DNA of 64,000 nucleotides, taken from positions 55,824 through 119,823 of the forward strand of contig CAXXMH010000001.1 of the NCBI GenBank assembly GCA_963664665.2. Reading direction: 5' to 3'. Source of the DNA: Pseudomonadales bacterium. Its GTDB lineage: Bacteria; Pseudomonadota; Gammaproteobacteria; Pseudomonadales; Azotimanducaceae. A program made the position numbers and the translations under genes. The notes under the pieces are model-generated. The model saw only the letters and a list, made by a program, of their open reading frames with translations, was not told the DNA's origin and did no database searches. Below are positions 3,164-58,307 of the stretch, piece by piece (position 1 is the stretch's first letter; every line of letters starts with the position of its first letter).

Positions 3164-5050
3164 CTATTCGCTGTTCGATTCATTGACTTTAAGTAGAACG
3201 CGAACTTCGCTTTGCCGCTGAGTTACGCGCTGTCGGTCGAAATATTCGAGCACATCTATAACGGTGTTCCGACCTAGACCACTTGCATCGCGAAACTCGC
3301 GAACGGTGAATGGTTTGTTGGTTGCAAGTTCCGAAGCGATGTTCTGCAATTCTCCTATGCGTTCTGGCGTGAGATACCGGTTGTTGTTGACTCGAACGAG
3401 TGCTCCGGCTGCGACCATTGGTCGCATTGCTTTTTCAATTTCGTTAAAGGGTTTGCGCAGTCTTTTTGCGACGTCACCGAGCGAGACCGGTTGTTCCGCA
3501 TCGAACATAGGCCTTACCGTGTCGAAGAGCGCCGTGTCATACGAGGGTCCTTCCGCTTCATGTGTGACCAGCGCGTATTGCCCAGCAATGTGACGTAATG
3601 TTTGGCGCTTTAGCAATTGATCGAGAGTGAACTGAACGGCGTTCGAATAAGTTGGCGTCTCGCGTTCAAGTTGCGAGACGGTCATTCCTTCTTGTGTGGG
3701 ATGTGCATCGTGGAATGCGCTAAGCGTGTTGGTGATGCTTTGAACTATCTCGTCAAAAGCACCGATGCCGATTGCCGATCCATCCGCGTGTACAACGCGG
3801 TCGCTCTCCAGAAACTCTCTTATGTCTTCTTGTGTACACAGCGTGAAGCGCGTGAACTCGTCGACCGAGACTAAACCGCGAGACGTGTAGTTCTTTAAAG
3901 CTTTCGTGCGTCCGTTTGCGTCGATCGAGCTTCTAAGCGAATCCAGGAACGACAGATTCGTCTTTGATCGGCGCCTGTTGTGCGTCTCTTGAGAGTACGC
4001 CAAGATGGTCGCACCACCGAGCGTGCAGGATAGATCACGATCACGTAGGATCAATCGATCTCCAGCCTTGAAATGCATAGCATCGTCGCAATGCAGTTCA
4101 GCAAGCGTCCTAGCACCTGGCTCGGCGACACTTCCTTCAAGCAGCGCCAGACGCGCTTCGGTGTGATCGGTCAAGTGGTATATGTGCACGGAAGACCAGT
4201 GTTTGAGGTTCCGCGGAAAGTCGTCAAGCATCGAAAGATCAATGGACACCTGGTTGATCGGAAGGACGTGTTCCAAGGAGAGCAACCAATCGCCGCGCTG
4301 AGCTTCGTTTGCGTCTGAACCGGCAATATTCAGGCTACAGCGATCACCCACACATGCAGTCTTCGCATCGAGTCCTTGTACGTTTAGGTTCCGAATGCGG
4401 ACTCGATCTCCGATCGCCGTGAGATGGACTTCATCGCCTACGCGCACTTCGCCTGACGTGACGGTACCTGTGACGACTGTCCCGACGCCGCGTAGATTGA
4501 ACGAACGATCGATGGCTAGACGGAAAGGTCGAGCGCTCTCCGTCGAGTCAAACGTTTGTGCGATTTCGACGAGGTGAGTTCGCAACGCTTCGATGCCGTC
4601 ATTAGTCGGTGCGACGACTTCAAACACCTTCGCGTCGCGAAGAAAGCAATCGCTCTTGAATTGGTTAATTGCGACGCGGCATTCACGCAAGCGGTCCGCA
4701 GATACCAAGTCAACCTTGTTGAGCACGATGGTCCCCGACTGAACTCCGATAAGCTCAAGGATTTGAGCATGCTCGATGGTTTGCGGCATGATGCTGTCAT
4801 CTGCGGCGATGACAAGCAAGGCATGTTGTTGATTTGCGACACCGGCAATCATGTTGTGTATGAAGCGATGGTGCCCGGGCACGTCGACAAATCCAATGCG
4901 CTGTGAATCTATCGTCGTGTACGCAAAACCTAAATCAATCGTCAAACCACGTGCTTGTTCTTCCTTTAATCGATCGGTGTTGACGCCCGTGAGAGCTTGA
5001 ACGATCGCGGTTTTGCCATGATCGACATGACCCGCAAGCGTGATGATCAC
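3164..5050 (-). CDS. selB: Selenocysteine-specific translation elongation factor
   Basis: 628 aa. It has an EF-Tu-like G domain (GHVDHGKT, DVPGH, NKVD) followed by a long C-terminal extension typical of SelB. The GTG start overlaps the selA stop (GTGA at 5047-5050). Confidence 0.9.
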   Translation of the reverse strand: MIITLAGHVDHGKTAIVQALTGVNTDRLKEEQARGLTIDLGFAYTTIDSQRIGFVDVPGHHRFIHNMIAGVANQQHALLVIAADDSIMPQTIEHAQILELIGVQSGTIVLNKVDLVSADRLRECRVAINQFKSDCFLRDAKVFEVVAPTNDGIEALRTHLVEIAQTFDSTESARPFRLAIDRSFNLRGVGTVVTGTVTSGEVRVGDEVHLTAIGDRVRIRNLNVQGLDAKTACVGDRCSLNIAGSDANEAQRGDWLLSLEHVLPINQVSIDLSMLDDFPRNLKHWSSVHIYHLTDHTEARLALLEGSVAEPGARTLAELHCDDAMHFKAGDRLILRDRDLSCTLGGATILAYSQETHNRRRSKTNLSFLDSLRSSIDANGRTKALKNYTSRGLVSVDEFTRFTLCTQEDIREFLESDRVVHADGSAIGIGAFDEIVQSITNTLSAFHDAHPTQEGMTVSQLERETPTYSNAVQFTLDQLLKRQTLRHIAGQYALVTHEAEGPSYDTALFDTVRPMFDAEQPVSLGDVAKRLRKPFNEIEKAMRPMVAAGALVRVNNNRYLTPERIGELQNIASELATNKPFTVREFRDASGLGRNTVIDVLEYFDRQRVTQRQSEVRVLLKVNESNSE

Positions 5051-6438
5051 GTTAACGAGTCAAGATTGGCGATGAAATCCTCGAGTGGTTCTGCACCTCG
5101 CGTATCAAGATAGATAGCGCCTTTAAACAAGCGGCCGATGACCGGTGTTGGCGAATGTCGAAGACTCGCGAAGAGATCTTGTGTCGCTGAATTCGAAGGA
5201 CCTCTGAGGACGACGGCGATTGACGGTACGGTGTCGCCTGGCATGGCACCGCTACCGACTTCCGCTTCGCTCATTTCGATGTCGACCGAGAAGTCTTCTG
5301 GTAGGAGTTCGGCGAGGCGTGAGTGAATCAGCTTGGCGCGTGATTGGAGTTCGTTATTCGATATGCTGAGGGTGCGTAACGTTGGCACGTTGTTGCGGAC
5401 GTGTTCAGCGTCCTCATACGCTTTGAGTGTCTCATCGAGCAAAGCGAGTGTCAACTTCGAGGTCCGAAGTGCACGTTTCATCGGATTTGCATTGATCTTA
5501 TCAATCAGTTCGCGTGAGCCAACTAGCAAACCAGCTTGTGGACCACCTAGCAGCTTGTCACCGGAGAACGTCACCAAGTCTGCGCCGTCTTTTAACGCAT
5601 CGTTTGGCATTGGTTCGCGCGGCAACCCAAACTGGCTGGTATCGACTAATGCGCCGCTCCCAAGATCGACCACACACGGAATGTGATGTTCCGTCGCGAG
5701 CTCACTCAATGACTTTGTGCTCACTTCTTTGGTAAAGCCCTGAATGCGGTAGTTACTTGGGTGCACTTTGAGCAATAACGCGGGTTGGCTCGCGATTGCA
5801 CGTTCATAGTCACTGAGATGCGTACGGTTCGTGGTTCCGACTTCCACTAATTGGCATCCCGCGGCCTCCATGATTTCGGGCAAACGAAAACTGCCGCCGA
5901 TTTCTATGAGCTCGCCACGAGAGACGATGACGTTACGGTCTCGCGCCAGCGTATGCAACAGGATTAGGACCGCCGCAGCGTTGTTATTTACGATGGCGGC
6001 CGCTTCTGCGTTCACGAGTCGACATAGTCGCTCGCATACTGCTTCCTCGCGTTGGCCGCGACTTCCGGTACCCAAATCGAATTCAATCGATGCAGGCTGC
6101 GTGACAAGAGGCTTTACCCGTTCTAACATCGCTTCATCGATGCGTGCGCGGCCTAAATTCGTGTGAAGAATCGTGCCAGTCACGTTGAAAACGCGTTGAT
6201 AGCCACGTAGACGCTCAGTGGACAACCAGCGTTCGATTTCTTTTCGATAGAACGACTCTACCTCATCGTTGTCAACAGTCACTTCACCGGTGCGAAGGCG
6301 TGCCTGAATCGCGCGAATTGCTGCGCGGACAGATTCGCGACCCCAGGCTGCGACCACTTCCTCCAGAATAGGTGCACCAAGCAACCGATCGATTGAAGGA
6401 ATGGCTTGACGATTCTGGTTATCGTCGTCGCTGCTCAT
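5047..6438 (-). CDS. selA: L-seryl-tRNA(Sec) selenium transferase
   Basis: 463 aa. It carries the SelA-type PLP-lysine motif FSGDKLLGGPQAG and lies immediately upstream of selB, translationally coupled to it. Confidence 0.9.
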   Translation of the reverse strand: MSSDDDNQNRQAIPSIDRLLGAPILEEVVAAWGRESVRAAIRAIQARLRTGEVTVDNDEVESFYRKEIERWLSTERLRGYQRVFNVTGTILHTNLGRARIDEAMLERVKPLVTQPASIEFDLGTGSRGQREEAVCERLCRLVNAEAAAIVNNNAAAVLILLHTLARDRNVIVSRGELIEIGGSFRLPEIMEAAGCQLVEVGTTNRTHLSDYERAIASQPALLLKVHPSNYRIQGFTKEVSTKSLSELATEHHIPCVVDLGSGALVDTSQFGLPREPMPNDALKDGADLVTFSGDKLLGGPQAGLLVGSRELIDKINANPMKRALRTSKLTLALLDETLKAYEDAEHVRNNVPTLRTLSISNNELQSRAKLIHSRLAELLPEDFSVDIEMSEAEVGSGAMPGDTVPSIAVVLRGPSNSATQDLFASLRHSPTPVIGRLFKGAIYLDTRGAEPLEDFIANLDSLT

Positions 6439-36497: not shown

Positions 36498-36615
36498 TTA
36501 CGCCGTCTTACACTGGATTGAACGAAGCGCGATTATAGGAAGTGATAGCTATTCTGATAGCCGTAAACCGCGAGCCGCCATGTGTGTTTTCCGAGTGAGT
36601 TGCTACCCAGTTCAT

Positions 36616-36708
36616 CGAATTTAGGACAAGCGCGAATTAGCGAATCAGACCTTACTCGCGATTCTCCGATTCGAGCGCGGAATATCGTCTTGGTATCACT
36701 CGAATTAG
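36616..36708. repeat. Cluster of CGAAT(T/C)AG octamers in the BVMO/methyltransferase divergent spacer
   Basis: CGAATTTAG at 36616, CGAATTAG at 36633, CGAATCAG at 36641 and CGAATTAG at 36701. The same octamers form the minus-strand reading of the 3029-3088 repeats. Confidence 0.4.
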
Positions 36709-37019
36709 ATTGCGGCCTAGTTGACTCTTGGGAGGAGGATCGGCACGTTACGTTCATCCATCACAGCAAAACCGAAAACGTGTCAAACCAAGATTGATCT
36801 AAACTAATTAGATGCTCGTTGTATGCTTGTGGCATGGTGTGCTTGTTAGTAACGGTACTTCGCATTAATCGGCTTGGTAAGACGTGCGTCAGGGAGCGAT
36901 ATTTGAACGCAAGTTTTTTAGATCCTGAACAGATGGAGATTGGTTTATTGAGCCAGGTCGAGGGTGGAATATAGCAGTGAATAGAAGCTACACCGACAGT
37001 GGTGTCGCGAAGGTGCGCG

Positions 37020-38819
37020 ATGCATAACTCTTATAACCTCGTGACACGACAATCACCTTCAGAGGGTCGCCAGACTACTCGGCAAGACTTAATTAAAAGT
37101 GTGACTCAAGATCTGCGCATTTCTTCGACCGCTGATTCCGATATAGAACTCAGGACCGCACGTTCAGTTGTATTCCTCGTTGTGCGCTCGTACTGGGAGA
37201 CTACAAGGAAGAACAACAACTGGCAATGGAGTTTGCGAAGAAGGCCGAGCCGCGTGGGGTTCATCGGCCAATCATCTGAAACTGCTGAATGGTGCGCCAA
37301 ATTTGGGAATTCCGCTGCGTATCTCGATCCATCTGAAGCAGCTTATCGTATTGGCGCGCTGTATACGTCGCTGATGCCGAAAGACTACAAGGTGAAATTA
37401 GGCGCGCACTATACACCACCAGCGTTATCGGAGGAGCTGCTCGAGATGGCAGCTGAGAACGGGGTCGACTGGGGTACGGCACGTATTTTGGATCCTGCTT
37501 GCGGTGGGGGTGCGTTTCTAGTTCCAATCGCTCGCCGTATGATCGCAATTCGCGACGCAGCTAGTGCAATCAATGTACTCGAGGACATTGAGCAAAGTCT
37601 AGTGGGCTACGAGTTAGACCCATTCGCGGCATGGTTATCGAAGGTTTTTTTGGATACGGTTTTCGGTGAATTGTGCTACAAAGCAGGTAGGCGTCATCGC
37701 TGTGATGTGGCCATATGTAACAGTCTTGAACGAAATCGAGATAAAGATGGCTTTGATCTTGTGATTGGTAACCCTCCGTACGGTCGAATACGGTTGCCTC
37801 AAAAACTCCGTGCTAAGTTCTCGCGTAGCCTGTTTGGTCATGCGAATCTATACGGTTTGTTTACGGACCAAGCATTAAGACTCACCCGTAAAGGTGGGTT
37901 GATCGCTTACGTTACACCGACGAGCTTTCTCTCAGGAGAATACTTCAAATCGTTGCGTGGTTTGCTCGCCGAAGAAGCCCCTCCTGTAAGTTTGGGGTTT
38001 GTGACTAAAAGGAAAGGCGTATTTGACGATGTTTTGCAAGAAACACTGTTGGCAATTTACAGGCGCACAAGTAATAAAACTGCGGGCGTGGTCCGCCTAA
38101 TCACGCCAAAAGCAAGCGGTGAAGTTGAATCAGTGTTCGCTGGTCGATTCGATCTGCCGGCTGATCCGAAAAGTCCTTGGTTGATTCCCCGAACTAAAAG
38201 ACATAGTGTGTTGTTGCGTCAGACCCGCGATCTGACATGTCGACTCTCCGACTTCGGCTACACCGTGAGCACAGGACCGTTTGTCTGGAACAGACACAAA
38301 CTCAACCTTCGAGCGCGTAGGAGTAGAGGTGCGTACCCCGTCATTTGGGCGGAAGCCATCCGCGCTGAGGGTAAGTTTGAGTTTCGAGCTTCGCAACGAA
38401 ATCACAAACCGTTTTTTAAACCACAACAGCATGAACAATGGGTGGTAACTGACTTCGATTGTGTCCTTCTTCATCGAACAACTGCGATTGAGCAAGATCG
38501 ACGCTTAATCGCTGCTGAGTTACCTAATTCGTTTATTGCCGAACATGGCGCTGTCGTCATAGAAAACCATCTAAATATGGTCAGATCGGTCGTTGAAATG
38601 CCAAAGATCTCGCCTAAAACACTAGCGGCGGTATTAAACAGTTCGGTGGTTGATCAACTGTTTCGTTGCATTAACGGAAGTGTCGCGGTGTCAGCATTCG
38701 AGTTAAAAGCTCTACCTTTGCCTTCACAGGAGGATATGGAAGCGATTGAGTACTTAGTTTCGAGTGGTGCTCAGCGCGAGTATGTAGAGCAAGCCTTGAT
38801 TCGTGCATTCGGAATTTAG
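37020..38819 (+). CDS. N6-adenine DNA methyltransferase, Eco57I/gamma-class type (R-M modification subunit)
   Basis: It has SAM motif I (ILDPACGGGAFLV), catalytic motif IV (VIGNPPYGR), GAHYTPP upstream of these, and a C-terminal region of about 230 aa that could be the target-recognition domain. I prefer the ATG at 37020 (AAGGTG 4 nt upstream) over the listed GTG at 36999. The first ~100 aa look atypical, so the start is uncertain. Confidence 0.85.
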   Translation: MHNSYNLVTRQSPSEGRQTTRQDLIKSVTQDLRISSTADSDIELRTARSVVFLVVRSYWETTRKNNNWQWSLRRRPSRVGFIGQSSETAEWCAKFGNSAAYLDPSEAAYRIGALYTSLMPKDYKVKLGAHYTPPALSEELLEMAAENGVDWGTARILDPACGGGAFLVPIARRMIAIRDAASAINVLEDIEQSLVGYELDPFAAWLSKVFLDTVFGELCYKAGRRHRCDVAICNSLERNRDKDGFDLVIGNPPYGRIRLPQKLRAKFSRSLFGHANLYGLFTDQALRLTRKGGLIAYVTPTSFLSGEYFKSLRGLLAEEAPPVSLGFVTKRKGVFDDVLQETLLAIYRRTSNKTAGVVRLITPKASGEVESVFAGRFDLPADPKSPWLIPRTKRHSVLLRQTRDLTCRLSDFGYTVSTGPFVWNRHKLNLRARRSRGAYPVIWAEAIRAEGKFEFRASQRNHKPFFKPQQHEQWVVTDFDCVLLHRTTAIEQDRRLIAAELPNSFIAEHGAVVIENHLNMVRSVVEMPKISPKTLAAVLNSSVVDQLFRCINGSVAVSAFELKALPLPSQEDMEAIEYLVSSGAQREYVEQALIRAFGI

Positions 38820-38825
38820 ACAGTA

Positions 38826-39917
38826 GTGTCTTTACCACGGCTTCTTCCAGTACCCGAAATTCGGCAGCGGTTGCAAACGATATTTCCAGAAGGTATTGAG
38901 AATCGAACATACGTTACTCGCGAAATGGCGGCGAAGACCGTATTCGTCATGCTCTATGTGGGCGCAGTAGAAGGTGGGGAACGATGGGTACGACCGGATC
39001 AGATCACACGAATGAGTGATGCGCAAGCTCAACTAGAGAGCCAAATTGAACGGGAGGAATGGGCTTTAACTTCGCTACTCGCTAATGTAGGAGCTATTGA
39101 AGGTCGTTGGTACGCTGCGAACACGAGAGAACCGATCAGAGATGAGACTCTTCGAGCAGGATTAGTTAAATTCGGCGCCGTTACGGAACGCAAGGATCTT
39201 CCCACCACGTCGCCGAGGCCAAGATACGCTTTAGCACGAGGCTTCGCTGTCCTATTTAGTCCTGAGCTGGACGAGGCTGTATTTCAATCGGCGGTCACGG
39301 ATTGGCGCGCTTCAAACTTGTCAAGAAGCGCATTAATGCGCACTACGCTGATGCTTCGAGGCTCAGTTGAACAAGGAGACCGAATACTCGTGACGTTTCC
39401 GGATGGAGAGACGCGCCACATGGAACCTGGACCGAGTTCGGTAATTTCGAAGGCGGTGGTTGAGGAGTTTGCGCCTAGGTTTCTTGAACAACCTGCTGTT
39501 ATCTGGTTGAGCGAGAGCAAGAGTCGTGTGGTCACTCGTGATGACGATCTAGCACAGCAGATTGGGTTAACGATTCATCCGGATCGTAATCTTCCAGACC
39601 TCATTTTGGTAGATCTTGGTCCACCGACGCCATTGCTGTTATTTGTGGAGATCGTTGCTACATCGGGTGAGATTAACGAAGTACGGAGGTCAGCTTTGAT
39701 GAAAGTAGCGACAGACGCTGGATTTGGTTCCGATCAAGTGACTTTTGTGACTGCATATCAAGACAGAGACTCTCGACCTCTGAAGGCGACGTTTGGCAGT
39801 CTTGCGTGGGGTTCATTTGCTTGGTTTATGACGGAACCGGATCAGATAGTGTTCTTTCACCGTCAAGACTCTGACGTTAACGTCTATTTAAGTAGCTTTG
39901 TCGAGCAAAGTCATTAA
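38826..39917 (+). CDS. Type II restriction endonuclease, BsuBI/PstI-like (tentative family assignment)
   Basis: 363 aa. It starts 6 nt after the methyltransferase stop. The N-terminal pattern RLQTIFPEG..NRTYVTREMAAKTVFVMLYVGAVEG and the C-terminal PDLILVD...LLLFVEIVATSGEI...FVTAYQDR...LAWGSFAW match my memory of BsuBI/PstI-family enzymes. No search was run. Confidence 0.6.
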   Translation: MSLPRLLPVPEIRQRLQTIFPEGIENRTYVTREMAAKTVFVMLYVGAVEGGERWVRPDQITRMSDAQAQLESQIEREEWALTSLLANVGAIEGRWYAANTREPIRDETLRAGLVKFGAVTERKDLPTTSPRPRYALARGFAVLFSPELDEAVFQSAVTDWRASNLSRSALMRTTLMLRGSVEQGDRILVTFPDGETRHMEPGPSSVISKAVVEEFAPRFLEQPAVIWLSESKSRVVTRDDDLAQQIGLTIHPDRNLPDLILVDLGPPTPLLLFVEIVATSGEINEVRRSALMKVATDAGFGSDQVTFVTAYQDRDSRPLKATFGSLAWGSFAWFMTEPDQIVFFHRQDSDVNVYLSSFVEQSH

Positions 39918-39977
39918 TTAGTCCTAAAACTTGGTTTCCAGAGCGATTGAGGACTTCTCACGCCACTAACATAACAC

Positions 39978-40004
39978 TCGACAAATATACATGTATATTA
40001 TAAT
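39978..40004 (+). promoter_or_regulatory. Candidate promoter of the TIR gene with an overlapping 14-bp perfect palindrome
   Basis: TCGACA (39978-39983), then a 15-nt spacer, then TATAAT (39999-40004). The spacer is almost entirely the palindrome ATATACATGTATAT (39985-39998). The spacer is shorter than the optimal 17 nt. Confidence 0.3.
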
Positions 40005-40053
40005 TCAGCCTAATTAAAGGCGTATTTCGATTAATGATGGTAAAGGAAATGTC

Positions 40054-41514
40054 GTGAATATTGAAAATGGTGGCGTAAATCCAAAGGCATAAATCAGCTA
40101 TAGTTGGAGTTCTCAAGAACATCAAGAGCTTGTTAGGTCGTGGGCCGATCGTCTAATCAATAATGGCGTTGACGTGGTGCTAGATCAATACGACCTTGAA
40201 CCAGGTGACGACACCTATAAATTCATGGAAAGGATGGTTGCGGACTCAACCGTGTCCCACGTTTTAGTCGTGTGTGACAAAGAGTACGCAGACAAAGCAA
40301 ATGCACGACGAGCAGGTGTTGGCGTAGAGTCGCAGATCATCTCTAAGGAAATTTATGAAGGTGTAGAGCAATCGAAGTTCATTCCAATCGTTACAGAGTT
40401 TAGTTCTGACGGTAAAGCAATCCTGCCTGTATTTATGAGCTCGCGCTTCTGGATCGACTTTTCATCCAATGAGAAGGTGAGGGACTCATGGGAGAGTCTG
40501 ATCCGCGTTCTGTACGACCGTCCACGTCTCGTTAAACCCAAACTAGGTGCAATACCGAAGTACTTAGATGAGGATTCAGTCGAAAACAATAGTGTGATTC
40601 GCGAAAAATTAGAAGTTTTCCGGTCAGCGGTGAAAGCGCGAAATCCAGATATTGCGAACCATAGAGCAGGCCTAATTGCTTCGTGTGTCGAATTTGCAGA
40701 TGGGATGAGAGTCAAGGTACCTTTAACTATAAGTGATCAAGATCTCGGCAGTAAAGTAGTGAACGATTGCAAGCAATTGGTGGCGTCTCGAGATGGACTA
40801 TTAGATTGGCTACTTTTCGACCTCGGCGCAGGTGATCAAAGCGTCGAATCTGCCACATTGACAGATGTGCTCGAGAAGTTATTAGAGCTTAAGGCGCGAC
40901 CTGAGGAATTAGGAGCTTGGAGTGATAAATGGTTCGGGGCACATTCAGTATTCGTCTACGAGTCATTTCTGTACATTGTTGCAGCGTTAATTCGATTTAA
41001 GCGTGCTGATCTTCTTCGATCAATATTCGAGTTCAGCTACCTATTGCCGCCAACGGATCGTGGAGCCGAAGACTTCGGTCGATTTGATCGATTCTGGGGT
41101 CGTTCGGAAGTTCTTTCGGTCGTTCTTCAAACTCCAGACGGTAGAAATTACTTTAGTACAGAGGCGGAGTTGATCAAACGTCAGGCTACGAGAACTGATC
41201 TATCTTTCAATGAAATAATGGAAGCAGAACTCCTGGTTTTTTTAGCTAGCTTGACCGACAACGTTTGTCAGTGGTATCCGGGTACGCTTCACTATGCAGA
41301 ATATAGTTGGGTGTCGCCATTTTTTCTGAGAGCAACTCGCCATTCAGATTTCGAGCTGCTAGCGAGAATCGTGAGGATTGAGAACGCCGACGAATTGCGC
41401 ACGCGAGTGAGAGAACGTTTTGACACAATGAATAGTAATCTCATGGGCAATTTTCGGATGCAAGGAAGCCCCTTCTGGTCCATGATGAATCTTAAAAATC
41501 TCGATACTCTTTAG
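40054..41514 (+). pseudogene. TIR-domain protein with an uncharacterised C-terminal domain of about 330 aa; the native frame is interrupted by an in-frame TAA at 40090-40092
   Basis: The GTG at 40054 has AAGGA 6 nt upstream and reads VNIENGGVNPKA-TAA-ISYSWSSQEHQELVRSWADRLINNGVDVVLDQYDLEPGDD, in frame with the listed ORF 40174-41514. ISYSW..(D/E)H..WV and the GVGVES segment (which retains the conserved Glu) are typical of bacterial TIR/SEFIR-like domains. Confidence 0.7.
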
Positions 41515-41785
41515 TCCACGTATATCGAACTTTCAATTTGTTTTGTGGGCATGCACTTGCGCCACTTACTTCACTCGGCTCATTTCATAGTCAGCGGAGG
41601 TGGGGCACTCAATAAGATTCGCTACATTCACGTCGTAGTAATACCATGTGGTTAATAGAATTGCGCGCATTTGATCGACACACTTAACCAAGGCGTCGGG
41701 GTCTGTCATGACAGGCACGAGATTCGTATTAACGACGCCAGTTTGATTCCAACGTAATTTCGTCCTCTATTTGTAGGAGCATTCC

Positions 41786-57521: not shown

Positions 57522-58307
57522 ATGTTTGACTTCACGTCGAACGAATCGAGAGATTACGTTCGCGATGAGCTAGCGACGAATGGGTACGTGTGCCTAAGGC
57601 GAGGTATCACTCGTCAAATAGCTGAGACTGTCGCGGCTGATGTTTGGAGTTATCTCAAGTCTGTTGACGTGTATCGAGCTGAAAAGGCGTCTTGGCCCAT
57701 TGGGAAACCGCTTCGCGGACCCGTATTTCGTGCGATTCGTGACTACGAAGGTCTAACGCCGTTGTTTTCGAAGACGTTTGAGCGCGAGATGACGACTCTA
57801 GTTGATCTGAAGTTGCGGGAAGGAGAAGAGCAAATCCTCTACATGACGTTTCCGGAATCGGAGTACGAGCCGAAACGGTGGCGCGTTCCTTAGGCTGGGT
57901 GGCACAACGACTTCATCGGAGACGGTACGGGTCGAACAAAGTTCCTTTTAGGTTTCGTTCTTTTGAACGATGCAGATGCTGGTGGAGGTAATCTCTTGCT
58001 TCTATTAGGCTCGCATCGCCTAAAGGAAGTGATCGCGCCCCAGCACGCGAGCGCAATCATGAAGCAACTCAGTCGAAAGTCTACGGTTCTCGAACGACTT
58101 TGGGATCGTCGTGAAGCAGCACCAGGTGCACTCCTTGGAGAGACTTGCAACGTAGATGGTGTTGACCTTCAAGTGCTAGAAATGACAGGAAACACAGGCG
58201 ACGTATTCCTGCTTGACGGCTCACTTCTGCACGCTGCAACTGTGAATGAAAGTCCGAACGTGCGGTTGGCATCAAAGTGCTTTTTCTACGTCACGGATAG
58301 GAACTAA
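57522..58307 (+). pseudogene. PhyH-family Fe(II)/2OG dioxygenase split by a single in-frame TAG (57891-57893)
   Basis: Listed ORFs 57522-57893 and 57963-58307 are in the same frame. Reading through gives ...KRWRVP-TAG-AGWHNDFIGDG...LLLLGSHRL...FLLDGSLLHAATVNESPNVR, so the stop sits 2 codons before the HxD iron-binding motif. Confidence 0.7.

Follow-up and report, generated by a model that had tools for sequence, protein, structure and literature searches.

A probable recent nonsense pseudogene of the anti-phage defence gene bSEFIR in a gammaproteobacterial genome

Anti-phage defence by SEFIR proteins is a single-protein system, in which NAD+ is depleted via the N-terminal SEFIR domain (10.1101/2024.02.11.579819); homologues are present in more than 20 phyla (10.1101/2022.05.11.491447). 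In the Bacillus protein, the exchange D40A (Bacillus numbering) abolished defence. The gene described here lies in a stretch of 64,000 nucleotides of DNA from a gammaproteobacterial MAG, analysed as a whole and referred to in the following as the window. Judged by its sequence, it is a bSEFIR gene, and as such belongs to an already described single-gene defence system, not to a new one. In an intact protein of this kind, the N-terminal SEFIR domain would destroy NAD+ upon infection, and the helical C-terminal domain presumably senses the phage; for the window gene, the NADase mechanism would be the one carried over from the characterised Bacillus homologue.

Family assignment and genomic setting

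The frame that follows the in-frame stop of this gene (P0002) matches the PADLOC profile for bSEFIR (PDLC03957) at an E-value of 1.1e-85, with its residues 1-470 aligned to positions 43-382 of the 412 in the profile; the match thus takes in both the SEFIR domain and the family-specific C-terminal domain. In a Pfam hmmscan, TIR_2 (PF13676; E 1.9e-13, 51.4 bits, cut-off 28) and SEFIR (E 5.4e-12, 46.7 bits) both pass their cut-offs. The TIR_2 score, being above the curated threshold, places the protein in the TIR superfamily and slightly exceeds that of SEFIR, whereas in the comparison with solved structures SEFIR is clearly ahead (SEFIR 5Y8E, E 9e-30 over residues 1-149; TIR 7uxr, E 0.065). For an assignment to SEFIR, Millman et al. 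ask for an N-terminal SEFIR match that outscores the TIR match in HHsearch; the assignment made here is by hmmscan and structure comparison. Of the original prediction, a full-length TIR gene carrying a stop, the full-length gene and the stop are retained, and the family is narrowed from a generic TIR to the known bSEFIR.

Homologues of the protein number 916 at E<=1e-5, and among the matches listed most cover 100% of the query. Its AlphaFold model (mean pLDDT 80.8) places helix alpha-A over residues 8-23; the C-terminal domain is all-helical and confidently modelled (pLDDT mostly >85). In Foldseek, the sole significant solved relative of the model is 5Y8E (TM 0.77), and a search with the fold of the C-terminal domain returned no significant solved relative. 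Two residues, E79 and D40 (post-stop-frame numbering), are invariant in 37 aligned sequences. E79 is the Glu of the GVGVES motif, which had been predicted to be kept downstream of 40174 and is found there as an invariant column; its catalytic role is presumed from what is known of TIR and SEFIR NADases.

The bSEFIR gene lies directly behind a pair formed by a methyltransferase and a BsuBI/PstI-family endonuclease (Table 1). Across these restriction-modification (R-M) genes and bSEFIR (36500-41500), the GC content is 0.44-0.50, lowest over bSEFIR, compared to 0.52-0.53 in the flanks; the low-GC stretch fits a horizontally acquired defence island, yet one that is syntenic in three related MAGs. 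In two related loci, L003 and L085, a DUF4268 gene (1589-2542) is situated between the monooxygenase and the methyltransferase, where the window has a spacer of about 500 bp (36498-36998); the content of the island thus differs between relatives.

The interrupted frame and its intact relatives

What the window gene lacks is an uninterrupted frame from a start upstream of the F/Y-xSYSW strand. The frame opens at GTG 40054, 6 nt past an AAGGA Shine-Dalgarno sequence, runs through 12 sense codons as VNIENGGVNPKA, and encounters a TAA as codon 13; thereafter it continues as ISYSWSSQEHQELVRSWADRLINNGVDV... / ISYSWSSQEHQELVRSWADRLINNGVDVVLDQ... and remains open for 473 codons, until the stop at 41515-41517. 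Re-reading the sequence returns exactly the coordinates that had been predicted for the signals, the GTG, the TAA and the further in-frame GTG at 40174. The latter, 27 codons past the TAA and in frame with GTG 40054, opens the listed ORF, whose 446-aa product (P0003, one member) is the sole form in which the protein database has the window gene. By direct reading, the frame has no ATG, GTG, or TTG from 40093 up to GTG 40174, and AATAATGGCGTTGAC, directly 5' of that codon, contains no Shine-Dalgarno sequence. Upstream of the gene, a consensus scan proposes ATAACA-17-TATATT at 39971-39999, with a score no higher than that of shuffled sequence. A perfect 14-bp palindrome, ATATACATGTATAT, is found at 39985-39998; between the orthologous genes of L003 and L085, this palindrome has no conserved counterpart.

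Table 1. Features of the bSEFIR locus and the adjacent R-M genes, in window coordinates.
Feature	Position	Strand	Evidence and remarks
Eco57I-type N6-adenine DNA methyltransferase, opening the island	36999..38819	+	Pfam Eco57I E 2.9e-17, N6_Mtase E 3e-08; same place in L003 and L085
BsuBI/PstI-family restriction endonuclease, intact	38826..39917	+	Pfam BsuBI_PstI_RE E 5.6e-41, BsuBI_PstI_RE_N E 4.7e-30; 73% identity to L003/L085
Promoter-like region with 14-bp palindrome ATATACATGTATAT	39971..40004	+	Weak candidate; consensus scan and direct reading
Shine-Dalgarno sequence AAGGA	40043..40047	+	Direct reading; TGGAG at equivalent distance in orthologues
Ancestral GTG start of the bSEFIR gene	40054..40056	+	Homologous in position to the L003 TTG and L085 GTG starts
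In-frame TAA nonsense codon, codon 13	40090..40092	+	Tyr/Phe in relatives; contigs of 4 samples
27 codons for strand beta-A (ISYSW), helix alpha-A and first half of beta-B	40093..40173	+	Without canonical start; family conservation
Coding region of the SEFIR (TIR-like) domain, predicted NADase	40093..40539	+	Pfam TIR_2 and SEFIR; PDB 5Y8E; Foldseek TM 0.77
GTG, first canonical start past the TAA; 446-aa ORF of gene callers	40174..40176	+	No Shine-Dalgarno-like sequence
GAG codon, invariant Glu of GVGVES (E79, post-stop frame), presumed catalytic	40327..40329	+	Invariant column
Intact C-terminal domain of bSEFIR, all-helical, presumed phage sensor	40540..41514	+	PADLOC profile, helical model; stop at 41515-41517

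The closest homologues of the gene are P0004 (66% identity, 487 aa; from the MAG Gammaproteobacteria bacterium COS2_bin_11, GCA_026707905.1) and P0005 (64%, 488 aa). The loci L003/L004 and L085 have their gene order in common with the window: monooxygenase, methyltransferase, endonuclease, bSEFIR, SDR, DsbA, DsbA. Where the orthologous proteins open with M-(9 residues)-PKAYISYSW, the window has V-(8 residues)-PKA-(stop)-ISYSW. The orthologues start with TTG (L003) or GTG (L085), 6-7 nt past a TGGAG and 13 codons before ISYSW, matching the window; these homologous starts behind Shine-Dalgarno sequences of the GGAG type bear out GTG 40054 as the true start. Codon 13 is TAC (Tyr) in L003 and L085 (6037-6039) and TAA in the window; the two are therefore one third-position change apart, as anticipated in the original prediction, which had seen in the TAA a Tyr codon changed by one substitution.

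Of the 119 database homologues listed, 117 have Phe (115) or Tyr (2) directly before xSYSW, and the same holds for all 80 loci from species-representative genomes (Phe 79, Tyr 1). The two exceptions, P0011 (452 aa) and P0020 (453 aa), open at MGDGVDVV, near the equivalent of 40174. In the DNA of both (L001:3830-5359 and L002:3719-5362), however, the upstream frame is open and encodes the full SYSW strand, as FVSYSW and FFSYSW, from GTG and TTG starts that yield proteins of 509 and 547 aa; their short forms thus result from mis-called starts, and all 119 database homologues examined have Phe or Tyr at this position. A recurrent N-terminal truncation in the bSEFIR family is accordingly rejected, its two apparent instances being gene-caller artefacts.

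In the family alignment, the 27 codons stranded between the TAA and GTG 40174 comprise seven invariant residues (S2, Y3, S4, W5, W17, A18, and L21) and three nearly invariant ones (H10, D24, and G25). Since in addition the pre-stop PKA, the start, the ribosome-binding site, and the N-terminal length match those of the orthologues, the continuity of the frame across the TAA goes beyond chance. The contrary case, in which homologues would start at the equivalent of 40174 with no conservation upstream, is clearly at odds with this strong conservation. It had also been foreseen that a product from 40174 would be without strand beta-A and helix alpha-A; with them, it would lose seven invariant residues of the family, plus half of beta-B.

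Origin, age and consequence of the stop

Evidence from orthologues, family, and contigs agrees with the predicted inactivation of a full-length gene by a single nonsense mutation, and the locus is probably a recent nonsense (loss-of-function) pseudogene of bSEFIR, an allele that would be fixed, or would predominate, in the population sampled. In the window lineage, one base change would have converted the Tyr codon 13, TAC in the syntenic orthologues, to TAA, such that ribosomes starting from the ancestral GTG 40054 would release a 12-residue peptide. Initiation at GTG 40174, which has no ribosome-binding site, would give a product beginning inside strand beta-B; with the central strand beta-A, helix alpha-A, and half of beta-B missing from its Rossmann-like SEFIR domain, this product would not be expected to fold or oligomerise. 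The fold and the conservation of its residues thus suggest a loss of function that includes the inactivity of the 40174 product.

The post-stop frame has not visibly decayed: out of 76 columns without variation among 36 intact relatives it retains 75, and intact sequences lose 0-5 by the same test; of the near-invariant residues, the window has lost 14, P0005 14, and P0004 13. Mean identity to 34 outgroup sequences is 50.1% for the window gene, 49.0% for P0004, and 47.6% for P0005, and identity to the orthologues is 66.5% for the window bSEFIR, next to 68.5% for the neighbouring intact methyltransferase and 72.9% for the endonuclease. With no excess in residue loss, in outgroup distance, or in divergence versus the neighbours, long-standing decay is rejected; compared with the separation from the orthologues, the mutation thus arose recently.

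Among 80 other loci from species-representative genomes, one is interrupted (L063) and none contains a frameshift. Counter-selection of a toxic effector, which the original prediction offered as one explanation of the stop, is thus unsupported as a general trend that would often turn bSEFIR into a pseudogene. In L063 (MAG Arenicellales bacterium, OY282380.1), the in-frame stop (3874-3876) takes the place of the invariant Tyr of FLYIV in the C-terminal domain, equivalent to Tyr294. A different irregularity is seen in L014 (MAG Gammaproteobacteria bacterium, OZ242171.1), where a second match (4845-5666) lies about 330 bp downstream of the intact bSEFIR gene, in a different frame; it covers C-terminal residues 169-441 only, at 32% identity, and may represent a stand-alone or degraded sensor-domain paralogue.

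As an alternative to a pseudogene, the locus could yield a low level of functional product, by readthrough of the TAA, by termination-reinitiation at the ATC that follows it, or from GTG 40174, so that the stop would throttle a toxic NADase. The downstream frame is indeed intact and conserved as in the intact relatives, the promoter-like region, the Shine-Dalgarno sequence, and the start codon are kept, and the preserved 473-codon frame would fit continued selection on a still-expressed product equally well; an intact downstream frame is, however, equally predicted for a young pseudogene. Against residual function, TAA is the least leaky stop codon in bacteria, canonical starts are missing from 40093-40174 as is a Shine-Dalgarno sequence before 40174, and the product of that start would be without the invariant SYSW strand and the helix of W17, A18, and L21. 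Furthermore, no other family member is built in this way, given that 79 of the 80 loci are uninterrupted and that the two shortened database proteins stem from mis-called starts. We thus regard residual function as unlikely.

Whether the stop is real at all can be judged from Logan contigs of four samples of one study, which span 40090-40092 with 0 differences and are unbroken at the site; the check was made on assembled contigs at a depth of 2-5x, built independently for each sample. Since the TAA recurs in the contigs of all four, an error confined to a single assembly is unlikely, and the sense codon at 40090 that would have exposed an assembly error is not what these contigs contain. A sequencing or assembly error in an organism with an intact gene could still draw on the low depth, on the use of contigs only, and on the probable origin of the window from one of the four runs; nevertheless, it would have to produce the identical base in four separately assembled samples, as a substitution and not as a homopolymer indel, and to do so in a window whose second nonsense codon likewise recurs, in three samples. 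We consider this very improbable; a minority intact allele, or a systematic error shared by the samples, could go unnoticed at a contig depth of 2-5x. In runs X2 and X3, the contigs both break at about 40170-40184, and one X3 piece (40172-40455) has one differing letter, which hints that strains in those samples are polymorphic shortly past the stop. Run X5, from another study, provided three short fragments of the gene only, none of them over the stop.

The second nonsense codon, a TAG at 57891-57893, splits the same-frame pieces of an oxygenase-like gene of about 261 aa (57522-58307) and is present in the contigs of three samples. The site is spanned by full-length homologues (261-272 aa; up to 86% identity), in which it is occupied by an invariant Trp (RVPWAGWHNDF). 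The split noted in the original prediction is thus real, a genuine nonsense lesion at an invariant residue; the family name PhyH given to the gene is tentative, with a Pfam match at E 0.004, below the cut-off. Both nonsense lesions of the window are changes from G/C to A. In a scan of the window for same-frame segments of at least 70 codons separated by a single stop, 57891 is the only true further split found; four large pairs were checked there (BioF/BioD-like, Hom/RecJ, GyrA/PheA, and MoaA/DUF1285) and are rejected as split genes, being separate and complete.

With this amber-split oxygenase, the TAA of bSEFIR could be taken to mark a lineage of elevated stop suppression, in which it is tolerated or maintained as an expression throttle, with rare readthrough or reinitiation providing traces of a toxic NADase sensor. 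This would explain the pristine 473-codon frame and the expression signals; it is a speculation to which we give slightly less credence still than to an error. A decoding of TAA as an amino acid, by reassignment in the genetic code or by a suppressor tRNA dedicated to it, might be read from the presence of two in-frame stops within one 64-kb window, and is effectively refuted: the two stops differ in codon (TAA and TAG), the adjacent same-frame pairs checked are complete, separate genes, the sole tRNA in the window is Pro-GGG, and of the 38 open frames of at least 250 codons in the window, 13 end with TAA, 10 with TAG, and 15 with TGA, all as normal stops, so that the genetic code is standard.

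For a recent nonsense pseudogene, the reading preferred here, the 446-aa 'TIR protein' of the gene callers is an artefact of the nonsense mutation, and its annotation would be relabelled as bSEFIR pseudogene. The locus provides a clean, small example of a defence gene just after its inactivation, with the adjacent R-M pair intact, and may be of minor use for the turnover of defence islands in uncultured marine or sponge-associated Gammaproteobacteria; the scientific surprise is low, and no long-standing question is opened.

Comparison with described systems

The bSEFIR system of Bacillus sp. NIO-1130 (Millman et al. 2022, 10.1101/2022.05.11.491447) has the architecture of the window gene, an N-terminal SEFIR domain followed by a helical C-terminal domain of about 330 aa; the two further share the full-length match to the PADLOC profile and the location in a defence island beside R-M genes, and the window gene retains residues Glu and Asp that are invariant among the aligned sequences. 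In contrast to this system, the window copy is interrupted by a TAA at codon 13 and is not expected to function; where the Bacillus protein has been tested, the window copy comes from a distant gammaproteobacterial MAG and is known from its sequence alone. The BcSEFIR domain (PDB 5Y8E/5Y8F; Yang et al. 2018) is 41% identical to the window gene over 150 residues, the ISYSWSS strand of the window aligning from residue 6 of the 5Y8E chain; the crystallised fragment consists of the domain only, whereas the window gene goes on into the C-terminal domain and is interrupted by the stop just before the first strand.

The NADase defence proteins with TIR domains (Thoeris ThsB, TIR-SAVED, and short pAgo-TIR) have in common with the window gene, which matches TIR_2, a related Rossmann-like fold and the conserved Glu, and resemble bSEFIR in that cleavage of NAD+ is their defence output. 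They differ in that the window gene matches the TIR-containing PADLOC models weakly (E 1e-4 or worse) and has none of their partner genes by its side. Nearest of all are the orthologues P0004 and P0005, which are like the window gene in flanking genes, start position, and N-terminal length, and unlike it in that they are uninterrupted, with Tyr (TAC) at codon 13.
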